A stretch of 64,000 nt of DNA, taken from Escherichia phage VTCCBPA_211. Shown here in pieces: positions 34,695 to 42,062 of this stretch; the stretch's first letter is position 1; the number at the start of each line of letters is the position of its first letter. Location: sequence record PP989838.1, one strand, 5' to 3'. The position numbers were made by a program, and so were the translations under genes. The notes below the pieces were generated by a model, which was not told where the DNA came from, did not search any database, and saw only the letters and a program-made list of their open reading frames with translations.

Positions 34695-36071
34695 GTGAGC
34701 AACCCGGACGCTCTTCCATTTTTGACAGAGATGACTGTCGCTGATATAATCTCTAAGCAAGCAAAGCACGGAGTGAGTTTCAACCGAAGAAATGCTCGGT
34801 GGTATGTTCACCTCCTTAAAGAGATTATTGTTAATATTGACAGAGAGTTGATTCCTCTCTTACCTAAGATGAGATTAGACGGCTCTACTTATATGAAGCC
34901 GTTTAAGAAGTCTGGAGCTTTACAGAAGTGGCCTCAAGCTTATTGTGATAGGGTTGGGCTGAAGAGAGAAGATATTGGTGGAGCTTTCACCTGTGTCGAA
35001 TATGTAGACTTTGACCCATCGAAAGATGCACGAGTTAAAGAAGCTCTTATGGATGAGGGCTTTCTTCCTCCAGAGTTTAATGTATCTAAGAAGCCTTGGA
35101 ATACTTTCGAAATTAAGAAAGATATGAGAAAGTATGGAACATACCAAGCATGGTATACTGCTTGGATGCGAGGCAATGCTAAGCAGAAGCAGACAGCCGA
35201 GATGGTTGACGCTGATATTAAGAAGTTCTTAGAAAAGCATTTCAGGTTTAAAACTAAGAACTATATGAAGGCTTACGTATTTGGTTTGGGATTAAACCCT
35301 AATCGTCGTAATCCTGTAACGTTTGATGAGATTAAGAAAGCGCTAGCCACATCAAACAAGTGGCCTACAGCTCCTACAAACCTCGAGGAGACTCTTGAAG
35401 AAGGGTTAGGGGGTGAGCTAGGGAGTGTCGGAAGTTTGCTTAAGAGACGCGTTGTAGCGGCTCACAGGCTAGGTCTTATCAGTGGACTTATAGCAAAGGA
35501 ACGCGAAGATGGTAAACTTTCGGCAGAAGCTAACAGCTGCGCTACGCCGACTTTTCGATTCAAACATCGTATCGTGGTTAATATTCCCTCCCGTGGTCTG
35601 TTTGGTCACGAGTGTCGCAGTTTGTTTGAGTCTGACTATAACTCAGACAGTGATCACTCTCGTCCTTTCGTTATTACTAACGCTGTTCCTGATGGTTGTT
35701 ATATACGAAAAGGTACTAACGTAATTTACGAGAAAGGTAAGCCGGGGAAGAAAGACAAACCTGTAGGCGCTTACAAATATTACATACCCGCTGGTAAAGA
35801 AGTATTCTTAGGGTATGATGGTTCTGGACTTGAACTTCGTATGTTAGTGCATTATCTTGTGAAAGAGTGCCTTGACATGATGGAAGAAGCCAAAGCAGAG
35901 AACGATAAAATTAAGTATCTAAGGGCTGAGAAAGGTTTAGAGGCTGCTTATACTTATCGAGAGGTTCTTCTCTCAGGTGATATCCATTCCCACAACCAGA
36001 AACTAGCTGGCCTACCAACTAGAGATAATGCAAAGACGTTTAACACAATGGGCGTCTATAAATTCCTTTAA
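34695..36071 (+). CDS. family A DNA polymerase, polymerase-domain 5' exon (coding likely ends near 36040-36041)
   Basis: Motif A GYDGSGLELRMLV; ORF ends ...PTRDNAKTF then runs into insertion. Confidence 0.8.
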   Translation: MSNPDALPFLTEMTVADIISKQAKHGVSFNRRNARWYVHLLKEIIVNIDRELIPLLPKMRLDGSTYMKPFKKSGALQKWPQAYCDRVGLKREDIGGAFTCVEYVDFDPSKDARVKEALMDEGFLPPEFNVSKKPWNTFEIKKDMRKYGTYQAWYTAWMRGNAKQKQTAEMVDADIKKFLEKHFRFKTKNYMKAYVFGLGLNPNRRNPVTFDEIKKALATSNKWPTAPTNLEETLEEGLGGELGSVGSLLKRRVVAAHRLGLISGLIAKEREDGKLSAEANSCATPTFRFKHRIVVNIPSRGLFGHECRSLFESDYNSDSDHSRPFVITNAVPDGCYIRKGTNVIYEKGKPGKKDKPVGAYKYYIPAGKEVFLGYDGSGLELRMLVHYLVKECLDMMEEAKAENDKIKYLRAEKGLEAAYTYREVLLSGDIHSHNQKLAGLPTRDNAKTFNTMGVYKFL

Positions 36072-36729
36072 TTCGGTGGACATCTAGAACAGATAATACC
36101 GAGCCAAGCCATCCAATCTGCCTTGAAGACAAGGAGGTGGATTATGATTTGCAGGATTTGTAAAGAAGATAAAAGCGAAGACAATTTCCACAGAAACAGA
36201 ACAAACGTGACTGGACTAGACTACAGGTGTAAAGCTTGTAGGAGAGAAGAAGCACGAATTGGAAGAGAGAGCAATTACTTCCAACACTACTGTAGAGGAA
36301 AGAAATCTGAATGTAAGATAAAGGGTTATGATTTTGACTTAACTCCAGAGTTCTTAGAAGAGATTTGGACAGGATATTGTCCAATATTTGGTGTAGAAAT
36401 CTCAAGAGCTTCGGAAGGAAGAGGATCTCACAACTCAGCACATTTGGACAGAATAGATTCAAGTAAGGGTTACCTAATAGGTAACGTATCTTGGATTAGC
36501 GGCAGAGCAAACCGTATAAAATATGATGCTACTGCTAAAGAGCTTAGATCTATTGCAGATTGGATGGAAGGTGTAACGACTAGTCGTGATGAGTTTAGCG
36601 ACGTAGGGCCAAGCGGCTCGAAACAAGGAACCTCTTAAAAGAGGAAGAGATAGTCTGCTCTGCATGGGGACATGCAGCAGTTCATAAGAGAACGGGGGGA
36701 GTGGTAGCGTACTCCCTTGAACATCAGGT
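36041..36729 (+). mobile_element. putative group I intron with HNH ORF splitting DNA polymerase motif B (boundaries approximate)
   Basis: Upstream exon ends RDNAKTF, downstream frame resumes IYGFLYGAGAAKIGEIVGGG, i.e. the contiguous T7-type motif B as I recall it. Confidence 0.5.
36144..36638 (+). CDS. HNH homing endonuclease
   Basis: SD aaggaggtgg; Cys-rich N-terminus and HLDRIDSSKGYLIGNVSWISGRAN. Confidence 0.8.
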   Translation: MICRICKEDKSEDNFHRNRTNVTGLDYRCKACRREEARIGRESNYFQHYCRGKKSECKIKGYDFDLTPEFLEEIWTGYCPIFGVEISRASEGRGSHNSAHLDRIDSSKGYLIGNVSWISGRANRIKYDATAKELRSIADWMEGVTTSRDEFSDVGPSGSKQGTS

Positions 36730-37227
36730 ATCTATGGATTTCTATATGGGGCAGGCGCAGCTAAGATTGGAGAGATTGTTGGAGGAGGCGCTCAAGAGGG
36801 TGAAATTCTCAGAGAACGTTTCTTAGCAGAATGCCCTTGTATCCCAATTGTCTTGGAGAGAGTACAAGCTCGTGCAGAAACAGGCACTCTTGAAGGTGTG
36901 GATGGTCGTAAGTTGACCATGAGACGGGATGCCACTGGTAAAGTTATGGTTCATAAAGCACTAAACACTTTACTTCAGAGTGCGGGTGCTATTGTCATGA
37001 AATATTCTATTCTCTTCACAAACAAGTGGGTAGATCAGCAGAACATTAGGGGTAACAAAGTAATTGACTACCATGATGAAGCTCAGTGGTCTGTTAACCG
37101 TAACGATGTTGATAAGATGAAAAAGATAGCTGAGACTTGTGTCAAGAAGGCGGGTGAGTACCTAAACATGCACTGTGAGCTAGCTTCTGATTGTAAAATC
37201 GGACTGAATTGGATGCAAACTCACTAA
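36709..37227 (+). CDS. family A DNA polymerase 3' exon (motif B remainder, motif C); splice acceptor likely near 36729
   Basis: Frame open from 36709: GIYGFLYGAG...VIDYHDEAQW (motif C HDE). Confidence 0.8.
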
Positions 37228-37397
37228 ACACAGAACTGAAAGAATAGAATACAAATGAACTAGTCTTATTGATTAGTTCATAATAAGGAGATTGAAGTGG
37301 AAGAGATGCCATCGGATTGGTGTTATCGTCAGAGCGCCATCTGTAATGAACAAGGACGTCCTGATGAAGCTGAGTTTTATTTAGAACTAGCTGAACT

Positions 37398-37592
37398 GTG
37401 GAAAGAACGAGAGGAGAAAGAGTGATGGAAGGTATCTACCGTAAGCCACCTCCGAAGTATAACATCCTTTACACTGACGCAACAGGTGAGTTTAGAAGTG
37501 TGTTAGTTTACACGGATGAAGAACGAAACCAAATGGTTGCTGCTATTGAAGCCAATGGTGGTACAATCATGCGAATTTATAACATAACATAA
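37398..37592 (+). CDS. hypothetical small protein (start uncertain)
   Basis: ORF. Confidence 0.4.
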   Translation: MERTRGERVMEGIYRKPPPKYNILYTDATGEFRSVLVYTDEERNQMVAAIEANGGTIMRIYNIT

Positions 37593-37601
37593 GGAATATC
37601 A

Positions 37602-37778
37602 ATGACTGCTTCTGAATTAAAAGAAACCCTATCCACCGAAGAAGGTAAAGCTTTCTTCTTATCTCAAGTACACTCTATGGGTAAAGATGCCCTTCGCCAA
37701 GCAGTCGTTGAGCTTACTGGTGTAGTGATTGACTTGAGTATTGAAAACGAAACACTTGAAGCTAAAGTGAACAGTTAA
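37602..37778 (+). CDS. small ORF (58 aa)
   Basis: SD aaggaa; followed by terminator. Confidence 0.4.
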   Translation: MTASELKETLSTEEGKAFFLSQVHSMGKDALRQAVVELTGVVIDLSIENETLEAKVNS

Positions 37779-37784
37779 ATAAGA

Positions 37785-37808
37785 AGCTGCCTTCGGGCGG
37801 CTTTTCTT
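37785..37808 (+). terminator. intrinsic terminator
   Basis: gctgcc ttcg ggcggc hairpin followed by ttttctt. Confidence 0.5.
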
Positions 37809-37824
37809 GTCTAAAGGATTTGAC

Positions 37825-38217
37825 ATGAATATTGGTTTAGATTACGATGACACTTACACCTCAGATAAAAAGCTGTGGCGCTCTGTGGTGGCATTAATGC
37901 AAGAAAAGGGCTACGATGTACGCTTTGTAACTTATCGCTTTGCAGAGCCTAATGGGTATGATAATTATGACATTAAGATTGATGCAGAGTGTTTGCAGAT
38001 TCCTATCATCTTTTGTAATGGTGTGCAGAAGGATGAGGTGTGTCGACAGTTAGGTTTCTTCGTCGATATCTGGATTGATGACTTCCCTGTTGGAATCCCC
38101 AAAAAGGACCACCTAGACGGTATGCTGAAGGGCGTAAGACTTAATGACCTTAGGGCAGCACCTCCTGTAGAAATAGCCGCTCCTGTGTACTCTGAAGAGC
38201 CTCTGGTTATACGTTAA
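37825..38217 (+). CDS. possible HAD-like phosphatase/nucleotidase
   Basis: N-terminal IGLDYDDT resembles HAD motif I (DxDxT); SD aaagga before ATG 37825. Confidence 0.4.
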   Translation: MNIGLDYDDTYTSDKKLWRSVVALMQEKGYDVRFVTYRFAEPNGYDNYDIKIDAECLQIPIIFCNGVQKDEVCRQLGFFVDIWIDDFPVGIPKKDHLDGMLKGVRLNDLRAAPPVEIAAPVYSEEPLVIR

Positions 38218-38229
38218 TAAGGAAATTAA

Positions 38230-38451
38230 ATGATTTGGATTCACACTTATAGAATTGGGAAGAAAGGGCTTACTACTATTCACACATCTGAAGATAGTGC
38301 TAAAGCATCTCAGGCTGTACTGAAAGGAAAAATCACACCTTATGTAGTCGCTGAAGAAAAGAAGAGTCCTCCAGTTCTGGAATACTTAGGAACAGGTAAA
38401 GCTTATACAGCACTGGATGTTATTAACAATAAACAAGGAGATGTGGCATAA
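38230..38451 (+). CDS. hypothetical small protein
   Basis: ORF. Confidence 0.5.
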   Translation: MIWIHTYRIGKKGLTTIHTSEDSAKASQAVLKGKITPYVVAEEKKSPPVLEYLGTGKAYTALDVINNKQGDVA

Positions 38452-38453
38452 AA

Positions 38454-38669
38454 ATGGAATACATTGATAAATACTCAAGTGAAGATTCAACAGACGCTGA
38501 AGTTTTGTTCATACTAAAAACTGACTGTCTTGAACATGGTCAACTTATCAATTTCATTGAGTTGGCAAAACTTAAAGAAGAGATAGATCAACTATACAGT
38601 GATGAGCAATCCAGATTACTTTCTCTATCCCTTCTAGGTGATTTAACTTGCGACGGGTGCACTATCTAA
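38454..38669 (+). CDS. hypothetical small protein
   Basis: ORF; C-terminal CDGC. Confidence 0.5.
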   Translation: MEYIDKYSSEDSTDAEVLFILKTDCLEHGQLINFIELAKLKEEIDQLYSDEQSRLLSLSLLGDLTCDGCTI

Positions 38670-38678
38670 GAGGTCTTT

Positions 38679-39182
38679 ATGGCTGAAGTTTATTTTGCAG
38701 GGGATGGTCACTTAGGCCATCGCAACATCTGTAGTTTTCGTAAGCAATTTAAAACCATCGAAGAACACGACAAAGCAATCCTAGCTGCATTTGATCATGT
38801 AACTAAGCGTGATAAAATCTTCTTTACCGGTGATTGGGTGTTTGAAAAGTATGCCCTTGATATCATCGCTGAAGTAAGAGGAGAGAAGCATCTAGTCTTA
38901 GGGAACCATGACAGGTTAGAACTTCTCCCTGATATGATGAAAGTCTTCCGTAGAATCTCTGGTGATTATAAATATAAAGAGTTTTGGGTAACTCATATTC
39001 CTATTCACACTGATGAGATGAGAGGGAAGTTTAATATTTATGCTCATACTCATAACCACGTAATTGATGATTGGAGATATTTCTGTACATCAATGGAGCA
39101 AATTAACTATAAAGCTGTTTCTCTGCAAGAGATTAGGAAGGTCTTTGATGAAAGAAGAAAAGAACAAGATCTCATTATTTAA
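38679..39182 (+). CDS. calcineurin-like metallophosphoesterase
   Basis: Motifs AGDGHLGH, FFTGDW, LGNHD, AHTHNH. Confidence 0.7.
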   Translation: MAEVYFAGDGHLGHRNICSFRKQFKTIEEHDKAILAAFDHVTKRDKIFFTGDWVFEKYALDIIAEVRGEKHLVLGNHDRLELLPDMMKVFRRISGDYKYKEFWVTHIPIHTDEMRGKFNIYAHTHNHVIDDWRYFCTSMEQINYKAVSLQEIRKVFDERRKEQDLII

Positions 39183-39588
39183 AGAACCTGTAGTTTATAA
39201 AGACTCTATCAGAGATCAGTATAATGAGATGTTAAAGAAACAATCTGATTCTAATCTTCGTTATCAGAGGATAGTAGAACAAACTAACTTTAAAGGTTTA
39301 CTTGAATGGTAACTTATATCCTTTACTTTTTAGCTTTCTTAGGAATAATCTTTTTATCTATTATTCTTGAATTTGGTTTAAGTAAGTTAGTTAATTATTT
39401 AGGTAATAAGTAATTATTATTCTTTTAAATAGAGAATCAAAGTCCCTAGGAGTCCCTACAACCTAAATCAAGGATTCCTTAATTCTCTATTTTTATCTCG
39501 CAGGTGGCTCCTGCCCTTCGGTACTTGCAAGGGATTCTGTGAATTGCCCAATATACAAGCCTGCAATAACTTTATCAGCTATACAATA

Positions 39589-39597
39589 TATACATTA
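39589..39597 (-). promoter_or_regulatory. reverse-orientation TAATGTATA motif (function unclear)
   Basis: + strand tatacatta; would drive antisense transcription. Confidence 0.2.
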
Positions 39598-39660
39598 CTA
39601 GTGTGATATATCTACTACCAAAGATACTTATATTATATAGTACTCTTATCGGTATAAGCG

Positions 39661-39669
39661 TAATGTATA
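39661..39669 (+). promoter_or_regulatory. TAATGTATA motif upstream of SSB gene, candidate phage-sigma promoter element
   Basis: Exact TAATGTATA(CT) about 60 nt upstream of ATG 39729. Confidence 0.4.
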
Positions 39670-39728
39670 CTATACATAACCGCTCAAAGAGAGCAACAAT
39701 CTTTCAAATTAAATAAGGAAATTAAAAT

Positions 39729-40475
39729 ATGTCTATGATTCCAACTATCGCAACTGCTTCCCGTAAATCCAACTACGATGTAATCCCTGATGGTGAGTAC
39801 GAAGCACGTATCGTTCGTGTAGTAGGTTTGGGTGTTCACAATCGTGACCCTTGGATTGACCCGAAGACCAAAGCAGTAACTCCTAAGAATCCGGCTTTCC
39901 GTATGGATTTAGCTTTCGAGCTGATTGGTGTTGATGCTACTGGTAAAGATTCCGATGGTAAGGCATTAGAACCACGTCCGGCTTGCCAGTTCAAGAGCTA
40001 TGATGTAAACCCACGAGCTAAGAACTCTGGTATTCTTGATCTTTGCAAGATGATTGACCCAAGTATTCAAGCACTGAAAGGTGATCTGTCTTGGTTCAAG
40101 GATGTTCTGTTAGGTCAGCCTGTTAACATTCTGGTTAACTCTTACACTAACAAAGCTGGTGAAGTTAAAAACTCCATCAAGACCATTTCTCCAATCCCAA
40201 CCAAATATCGTGCAGCAGTTGGTGAAGCTCGTAGTCCTCTGGTATTCTTCGAACCATATGCTGAAACCGACGAGAACGTAGCATCCTATCAACTGATGTT
40301 CCCGTTCCAGCGCAACCTGCTTACTCAAGCTAATGACGCTAAGAACATGCCTCTGGCTGGTCGTGAAATTACTCGTGCTTCTGAAACAGAGCAGAAAGAA
40401 GCTACTCCTTCAATCCCTACGATTGATAAAGAGCCTGCTTCTACTTACGAAGACGACAACGATAGCCCATTCTAA
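39729..40475 (+). CDS. single-stranded DNA-binding protein (acidic C-terminal tail)
   Basis: C-terminus ...YEDDNDSPF resembles the SSB acidic tail; flanked by promoter motif and strong terminator. Confidence 0.6.
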   Translation: MSMIPTIATASRKSNYDVIPDGEYEARIVRVVGLGVHNRDPWIDPKTKAVTPKNPAFRMDLAFELIGVDATGKDSDGKALEPRPACQFKSYDVNPRAKNSGILDLCKMIDPSIQALKGDLSWFKDVLLGQPVNILVNSYTNKAGEVKNSIKTISPIPTKYRAAVGEARSPLVFFEPYAETDENVASYQLMFPFQRNLLTQANDAKNMPLAGREITRASETEQKEATPSIPTIDKEPASTYEDDNDSPF

Positions 40476-40495
40476 GTAACTCTCCTTGTTATAGC

Positions 40496-40521
40496 TTAGC
40501 CACCTTCGGGTGGCTTTTTTC
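40496..40521 (+). terminator. intrinsic terminator
   Basis: agccacc ttcg ggtggct hairpin followed by tttttt. Confidence 0.65.
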
Positions 40522-40795
40522 GTTGGAGACAATATGCAAAGTACATTAAGTGATAATGTAGGGTTTATCATTTTCTCAGCTCTTGTATTCTTTGGTGGTA
40601 TGAAGTTTAACGAGTACCAAACAGACAGCAGTAATCTGGACAAAGAGAAGCACCAGCAAGAGTTAGAGATTGAAAGAAGTAGGGCAGCTGATGAAGTTGC
40701 TCAGAGGGTTCTTACCGGTTTGTCTAACTGGAAGAAGAACACGGAAACTATTTATAAAGAGATGCATTATGAGAAAACTAAACCAGTTTTTTATA

Positions 40796-42052
<1,257 letters not shown>

Positions 42053-42062
<10 letters not shown>

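Follow-up and report, generated by a model that had tools for sequence, protein, structure and literature searches.

Two phosphohydrolase genes in the replication region of Escherichia phage VTCCBPA_211: a capless mini-HAD and an accessory metallophosphoesterase

The DNA analyzed here is a 64,000-nucleotide stretch of Escherichia phage VTCCBPA_211 (PP989838.1), called the window below. Our subject is a block of genes in it that encodes a very small HAD-family phosphatase, which we term mini-HAD, and a calcineurin-like metallophosphoesterase (Table 1). We favor a reading in which these are two separate, catalytically competent phosphohydrolases, a phosphodiesterase for replication support and a phosphomonoesterase, able to act consecutively. 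We put the probability of this reading at about one half. It builds on what we observed of the folds, the intact active sites, the homologous families, and the gene context; substrates and coupling are inferred from these.

Active sites, folds, and families of the two enzymes

The window phage is a phiEco32-like Kuravirus (Gordonclarkvirinae). Over positions 36800-40500, it shares 93-98% nucleotide identity with about 100 Escherichia and Shigella phages of this genus, and close relatives of the region include ES17, SkaterBoy_Bas90 (Bas90), and phiEco32. Both open reading frames (ORFs) are present on the plus strand at the coordinates given by a sequence-only reading of this DNA. That reading had described the genes as lying close together in the replication module, and both parts of the description hold: the genes lie between those for DNA polymerase and the phage sigma factor, and the gap separating them is 461 nucleotides with two small ORFs inside.

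The mini-HAD frame opens with an ATG behind an AAAGGA Shine-Dalgarno sequence, and its product begins with MNIGLDYDDT. Motif I is D6-x-D8-x-T10 (L-D6-Y-D8-D-T10), motif II is T36 followed by an invariant R38, motif III is K69, and motif IV is D85-D86. D6, D8, T10, T36, R38, K69, W83, I84, D85, D86, P88, and I91 were invariant across 32 homologues with identities as low as 31%, and all four HAD catalytic motifs are among these residues in the correct order. In 133 representatives with a mutual identity of at most 50%, conservation was 100% for K69 and D85, 99% for D6 and D8, 98% for T10 and D86, and 97% for T36. The AlphaFold model (mean predicted local distance difference test score of 89) is a capless HAD fold with a four-stranded Rossmannoid core. 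Its strands include residues 2-6, 31-36, and 82-84, K69 opens a helix at 69-75, the one-turn “squiggle” is present, and the flap hairpin and cap are absent. The core spans about 95 residues; a helix and then a low-confidence tail make up the rest. As in the HAD superfamily, motif I lies at the end of strand 1, with motifs II, III, and IV in place. The four motifs and the confident model bear out the HAD-phosphatase call of the sequence-only reading, and the protein is apparently catalytically competent, a predicted Mg-dependent phosphomonoesterase with Asp6 as the nucleophile.

The mini-HAD protein had no Pfam match at E values up to 1 and no NCBIfam match. The 5'(3')-deoxyribonucleotidase family PF06941 matched neither the window protein nor the 32 homologues, and unlike those enzymes and the PBS1 dTMP phosphatase Dtm, the model has no C1 cap enclosing the nucleotide. 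Searched against the PDB, the HAD profile gave nothing significant. Its best match (2obb, E = 1.1) was BT_0820 of Bacteroides thetaiotaomicron, a small HAD protein that is itself uncharacterized and thus gives no functional information for the mini-HAD. The matching family, phrog_4919, carries no functional label, and the gene product is called “hypothetical” in every Kuravirus record inspected. The C-terminal 3'-phosphatase domain of T4 Pnkp is also a capless HAD, and the two share an Arg two residues past motif II and an IDD motif IV. In contrast to T4 Pnkp, the mini-HAD has neither a kinase domain nor a phage RNA ligase partner, and its four-stranded core is about 45 residues shorter.

A profile search of 1.84 billion cluster representatives returned 2006 proteins at E values up to 0.001, with 1515 at E values up to 1e-10. 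The family comprises about 2000 clusters at 50% identity, and most members, at 93-120 residues, are the bare core. To our knowledge, they are among the smallest HAD enzymes known. No Pfam model covers the members, and we found no published description of the family. In phage records, mini-HADs occur in all 98 records of the Kuravirus group, in 7-11-like Grimontviridae, in rV5-like and Hena1/4MG-like myoviruses, and in others. Among the rV5-like copies, some bear the name “polynucleotide kinase,” a label that presumably stems from the resemblance to the T4 Pnkp phosphatase domain. Domain fusions among 150 representatives were few (HTH, RNA polymerase alpha C-terminal domain, and a possible P-loop) and had no common theme.

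Tandem-duplicated mini-HADs were also observed (P0114, P0116, P0125, P0128, P0132, and P0185). Both halves of P0114 look intact, and the others are pseudo-dimers in which one half is without catalytic aspartates (DxDxT or DD). Because one half of most tandem duplicates has lost these aspartates, the sequences suggest that the working unit is a dimer, with the partner subunit possibly serving as a cap. The mini-HADs are capless and probably dimeric enzymes. The “hypothetical” Kuravirus gene can now be named a HAD-type phosphatase, which is a new annotation inside a well-known superfamily.

The second enzyme carries GDGH (residues 8-11), GDW (51-53), GNHD (75-78), and HTH (123-125), the motifs from which it had been called a calcineurin-like metallophosphoesterase. 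The call was correct, with every metal ligand intact and with the DxH, GD, GNH[DE], H, and GHxH signatures and the beta-sandwich fold of the PF00149 calcineurin-like superfamily. Its profile showed full-length homology to L5 gp66 (hhalign E = 6e-30) and T5 orf4c (hhalign E = 1.8e-42), and the closest solved structure is Aquifex aeolicus aq_1665 (PDB 1xm7). By tblastn, relatives were found in 1332 phage records, including T5-like phages, T4-like phages of Acinetobacter and Vibrio, Staphylococcus K-like and Listeria P100-like phages, and mycobacteriophage L5. NCBIfam gave sub-threshold matches only, to PdeM and ApaH. Databases already annotate this protein as a phosphoesterase.

Measured activities in the metallophosphoesterase family come from mycobacteriophage members only (PMC12287305 and its references). 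A10ZJ24 Gp48 has phosphodiesterase activity and degrades DNA in vitro, and its absence inhibits replication of the phage DNA in M. tuberculosis (PMC12287305). In the same paper, Bxb1 gp47 is cited as a recombination directionality factor on which phage DNA replication also depends, and 2',3'-cyclic nucleotide phosphodiesterase activity is cited for D29 Gp66 (Dutta et al. 2014). The sequence-only reading had listed 2',3'-cyclic nucleotides among the candidate substrates; going by that citation, the suggestion stands for the homologous D29 Gp66, that is, for a relative of the window enzyme only.

The Kuravirus metallophosphoesterase, at 167 residues, is shorter than L5 gp66 (207 residues). Unlike in gp66, Gp48, gp47, orf4c, and aq_1665, the C-terminal tail in the window phage is a separate overlapping ORF of 54 residues, homologous to the tail of fused metallophosphoesterases of 203-216 residues and to phiEco32 gp42. 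In some relatives, the tail is in frame with the enzyme (P0055-P0060, 203-216 residues; compare L011 6082-6261). The history of the tail is one of gene fission or fusion, and since gp42 survives in phiEco32 despite the loss of the enzyme core, the tail apparently has its own function. A programmed frameshift linking the metallophosphoesterase to the 54-residue ORF was judged unnecessary because this ORF has its own Shine-Dalgarno sequence and ATG and persists alone in phiEco32. Double-metallophosphoesterase arrangements are recurrent as well. In T5, orf4c lies immediately downstream of orf5c, which encodes a NinI-like protein phosphatase (L014 1641-3025), and in a metagenomic contig (L048 1594-2872), a phrog_221 metallophosphoesterase is directly followed by a phrog_547 member.

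Gene neighborhoods and the proposal of consecutive action

We took 80 diverse viral-contig loci per family, those of the metallophosphoesterase by way of a 14-sequence alignment. Within 3 kilobases (kb) of the metallophosphoesterase, DNA polymerase A was found in 15/80 loci, often overlapping its start. Other neighbors were a DnaB-like helicase (9/80), a flap endonuclease (8/80), ThyX (7/80), and a homologue, about 240 residues long, of the 248-residue protein encoded at 39729 in the window (9/80). The typical order is helicase, metallophosphoesterase, polymerase, ~240-residue protein, and flap nuclease, and L5 gp66 also adjoins a DnaB-like helicase. Because helicase, polymerase, and flap-nuclease neighbors recur across loci, we conclude that the metallophosphoesterase sits in a conserved replication cassette.

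Within the genus, the mini-HAD is core and the metallophosphoesterase is accessory. The latter occurs in about 76 of the 98 Kuravirus-group records (by identity bands) and is dispensable, since phiEco32 itself lacks it. In that phage, the HAD is 99% identical and the 71-residue and 54-residue “tail” ORFs are kept, with the metallophosphoesterase core between them missing. Bas90 has both enzymes, the HAD at 100% and the metallophosphoesterase at 98.8% identity.

Across lineages, the mini-HAD has polymerase A as a neighbor in 10/80 loci and class II ribonucleotide reductase in 7/80. An ORF with metallophosphoesterase motifs was found in 18/80 mini-HAD loci, and in 14/80, it was on the same strand within 1.5 kb. 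These enzymes come from three phage families (phrog_547, 1649, and 221). Their density near the mini-HAD is about tenfold that of the outer flanks at 1.5-10 kb (14 ORFs per ~240 kb versus 5 per ~915 kb). Salmonella phage SE131 keeps the pair at 43% and 56% identity, and in L005 and L006, the order is reversed, with the metallophosphoesterase preceding the HAD and an overlap of 8 nucleotides. This recurrent proximity hints at consecutive action. We also observed loci in which a larger metallophosphoesterase (phrog_1649 or phrog_221) directly follows the mini-HAD (L091 10001-11253, L064, L082, and L059); the two genes abut in L091.

In phiEco32, the cluster with polymerase, nucleotide-metabolism, and sigma-factor genes forms the middle expression class (PMC8948821). 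Both window genes are presumably expressed with the middle genes for DNA replication and nucleotide metabolism. In the scheme that we propose, the metallophosphoesterase would be a binuclear-metal phosphodiesterase or nuclease that cleaves phosphodiester bonds, either in 2',3'-cyclic phosphates or in DNA or RNA itself, in support of phage replication. The mini-HAD would remove a phosphomonoester from a nucleotide or from the 3' end of a polynucleotide, a substrate that a core without a cap would permit. In sequence, cleavage by the phosphodiesterase would leave a nucleotide or a polynucleotide end with a terminal phosphate, which the HAD would then strip; in many other phages, each enzyme would also work alone. 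The caution in the sequence-only reading that specificity cannot be read from sequence was well placed.

A precedent for a HAD and a calcineurin-like enzyme acting in sequence on nucleotides exists in the host system PUA-Cal-HAD (PUA-Calcineurin-CE-HAD of E. coli ECOR28), which likewise pairs a HAD phosphatase with a calcineurin-like phosphoesterase (bioRxiv 10.64898/2026.01.15.699771). In contrast to the phage pair, it is a host defense system, a PUA sensor is fused to its calcineurin domain, which forms filaments, and its HAD is a capped, Pdxp-like protein of >276 residues and not a mini-HAD. We found no homology of the phage pair to PUA-Cal-HAD beyond the superfamily level and no PADLOC hit.

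Several observations weigh against the two enzymes acting as proposed. The published relatives of the metallophosphoesterase are only 25-37% identical to it, and their activities diverge (cyclic-nucleotide phosphodiesterase, nuclease, and non-catalytic recombination directionality factor). The mini-HAD profile did not match the T4 Pnkp phosphatase domain significantly (hhalign E = 0.25). The neighborhood counts ignore shared ancestry, and because they shrink to about 7 near versus about 4 far when made by lineage, the pairing signal is only moderate. A mini-HAD was present in only 3/80 metallophosphoesterase loci, all of the phiEco32/7-11 lineage, and 62/80 mini-HAD loci had no metallophosphoesterase in the flanks examined, so that coupling is optional at best. 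Placement in the replication module may also reflect shared expression timing instead of shared function. An obligate pair was rejected because the HAD stands alone in phiEco32, L003/L004, and rV5-like and Hena1-like phages and because 77/80 metallophosphoesterase loci have no mini-HAD.

Alternative roles

We consider it unlikely that the metallophosphoesterase is a Gp48-like nuclease that damages host DNA and silences host and defense gene expression, with the HAD unrelated to it. Gp48 is a host-toxic phosphodiesterase and DNase with a counter-defense phenotype (PMC12287305), the window enzyme is homologous to the Gp48-related L5 gp66, and its accessory status would fit an attack on the host. 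However, identity to the mycobacteriophage proteins is only ~28%, and some cluster A mycobacteriophage homologues failed to substitute for Gp48 (PMC12287305), so function differs among members even within cluster A. The gene also lies in the middle cluster and not in the early host-takeover cluster (PMC8948821).

Editing of the nucleotide pool is a similarly doubtful role. Here, the HAD and the metallophosphoesterase would together lower the phosphorylation of a particular nucleoside or deoxynucleoside triphosphate or monophosphate ((d)NTP or (d)NMP) and thereby exclude or reroute that nucleotide, for example, to support an unidentified DNA modification or to convert dUTP to dUMP that feeds ThyX. 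Such a combination of enzymes runs a dNTP-to-dNDP-to-dNMP cascade in PUA-Cal-HAD (bioRxiv 10.64898/2026.01.15.699771), and PBS1 pairs its dTMP phosphatase, which belongs to the HAD superfamily, with a dCTP deaminase (PMC12697855). Genes for dCTP deaminase and ThyX are present in the window, relatives annotate a dNMP kinase and a nucleotidyltransferase, and a ribonucleotide reductase neighbors the mini-HAD in the 7 loci counted above. DNA modification in these phages is so far a suspicion of the BASEL authors (PMC11990801). The HAD of the defense system, moreover, is the large capped type described above, and since phiEco32 does without the metallophosphoesterase, the pair cannot be essential for genome chemistry. 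We set aside thymidine exclusion by a PBS1-like dTMP phosphatase. This scheme is unlikely because ThyX and dCTP deaminase form a plain dTTP-supply route (PMC12697855), and a dTMP phosphatase would be counterproductive because the window phage makes dTMP with ThyX. The nucleotide salvage suggested by the sequence-only reading is likewise questionable for a monophosphatase, given that the phage has a dNMP kinase of its own.

It is improbable that one or both enzymes destroy an alarm nucleotide such as m6-dAMP or the nucleotide second messengers on which CBASS, Pycsar, Thoeris, or type III CRISPR systems rely. We keep this possibility alive because the metallophosphoesterase is accessory and because D29 Gp66 hydrolyzes cyclic nucleotides, as cited in PMC12287305. 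Like the nearby macro-domain gene described below, the metallophosphoesterase gene varies among near-identical phages, a pattern typical of counter-defense genes. The nucleotide monophosphate m6-dAMP is a known defense trigger that a phosphatase could remove (bioRxiv 10.64898/2026.01.15.699771), and Gordonclarkvirinae withstand nearly all defenses tested (PMC11990801). However, that panel consisted mainly of restriction and abortive-infection systems, so the resistance says nothing on signaling systems, and the counter-defense role of A10ZJ24 Gp48 runs through host-DNA damage and not signal hydrolysis (PMC12287305). The mini-HAD is core to all Kuravirus records and not variable, and the conserved context is one of helicase, polymerase, and flap nuclease. 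A PADLOC scan of six block proteins gave zero hits, with neither enzyme matching a model. Both modeled folds also differ from those of Acb1, a 2H fold, and Apyc1, a metallo-beta-lactamase (MBL) fold, and we know of no signal-degrading phage enzyme to which the HAD and metallophosphoesterase folds are related. Taken together, hydrolysis of defense signals, as raised by the sequence-only reading, is unsupported for either enzyme.

A long shot, in our estimate, is that the pair forms a phage-side two-step nucleotide hydrolysis module, a viral counterpart of the PUA-Cal-HAD effector that either reshapes the dNTP pool or destroys alarms. If true, such a module would serve a DNA modification, as yet unidentified, that accounts for the resistance of Gordonclarkvirinae to restriction or, alternatively, would remove m6-dAMP or 2',3'-cyclic nucleotide alarms before the host senses them. 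The recurrent pairing of mini-HADs with metallophosphoesterases of three unrelated families would then point to a general, unrecognized phage pathway.

It is very improbable that the metallophosphoesterase is a serine/threonine protein phosphatase: many GenBank product names say so and lambda phosphatase belongs to the same superfamily (PF00149), but motif II is GDWVFE and not the GDxxDRG of lambda-type (PPP) protein phosphatases, a test on the GDxxDRG and GNHE motifs and on profile similarity to lambda phosphatase came out negative, and T5 has a separate NinI-like protein phosphatase (orf5c) adjoining orf4c, so this common label is not supported.

The surrounding gene cluster and significance

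Table 1. Features of the two-gene block and its borders (positions in the window)
Feature	Position	Strand	Remarks
CUUCGG-loop hairpin, then U-run	37783..37808	+	Directly upstream of mini-HAD gene
Mini-HAD phosphatase gene, 130 residues	37825..38217	+	phrog_4919, E = 7.5e-55
73-residue ORF, Kuravirus-conserved	38230..38451	+	phrog_36005, E = 1.1e-35
71-residue ORF, homologue of phiEco32 gp43	38454..38669	+	phrog_11811, E = 5.2e-37
Metallophosphoesterase gene, 167 residues	38679..39182	+	phrog_547 / aq_1665 / L5 gp66 / T5 orf4c family
54-residue ORF, +1 frame	39148..39312	+	35-nucleotide overlap with metallophosphoesterase 3' end; own Shine-Dalgarno sequence
TAATGTATA, gp36 sigma-factor promoter element	39661..39669	+	Exact match to phiEco32 element

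The hairpin at the upstream end of the block has a folding energy of -18.2 kcal/mol (z = -3.5; 0/200 shuffles fold as well) and could be a terminator or a transcript-stabilizing element; CUUCGG hairpins in intergenic regions of phiEco32-like phages are a topic of PMC8948821. An Rfam scan of 35800-39800 found no RNA family. Just past the block, TAATGTATA stands upstream of the next gene (39729) and marks the downstream boundary; the phiEco32 gp36 promoter consensus is tAATGTAtA (PMC8948821). The 73-residue ORF is found in Bas90 and ES17, with a partial copy in phiEco32. These three phages have an extra ORF of 55-58 residues between the mini-HAD and the 73-residue ORF that is absent from the window (38217-38230 versus L001 4961-5128).

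Upstream of the block, the DNA polymerase A gene is interrupted (34695-37227), with residues 1-453 encoded at 34695-36065 and residues 450-614 at 36730-37224. The downstream part is only 69% identical to Bas90. The insert of 664 nucleotides carries an HNH-like endonuclease ORF (36123-36638), and because the downstream polymerase part has no canonical start codon before 36853, the arrangement suggests a self-splicing intron. Rfam gave no group I intron at the insert.

Downstream, the 248-residue protein (39729-40475, phrog_6599) is annotated as “hypothetical” and ends in an acidic tail (...YEDDNDSPF). Its homologues lie between polymerase A and flap endonuclease in many unrelated viral contigs, and it is reminiscent of T7 gp2.5-type single-stranded DNA-binding protein. 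At 40510-41029, a spanin pair made up of an Rz-like ORF and, overlapping it, an ORF with a lipoprotein signal lies amid the replication and transcription genes and not among the late genes. Between the spanin genes and the sigma factor, phiEco32 (gp37, “Appr-1-p processing”) and Bas90 have a macro-domain gene that the window and ES17 lack (window 40884-41029 versus L011 7977-8417 and L001 7923-8363), a second variable accessory gene related to phosphate or ADP-ribose. Past the sigma-factor gene, a 130-residue protein (41670-42062) matches the SLOG-family YAcAr domain (PF10686, E = 1.1e-6, just above the cutoff) and elsewhere bears the label “GTP-binding domain.” SLOG domains are predicted to bind nucleotide ligands.

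The finding is real but ordinary, a useful annotation upgrade that holds nothing surprising to a specialist. In many phages, including T5 and mycobacteriophages, the metallophosphoesterase family recurs as a dispensable component of T7-like replication cassettes, and the E. coli Kuraviruses in the BASEL collection would be a convenient test system for its role in replication.

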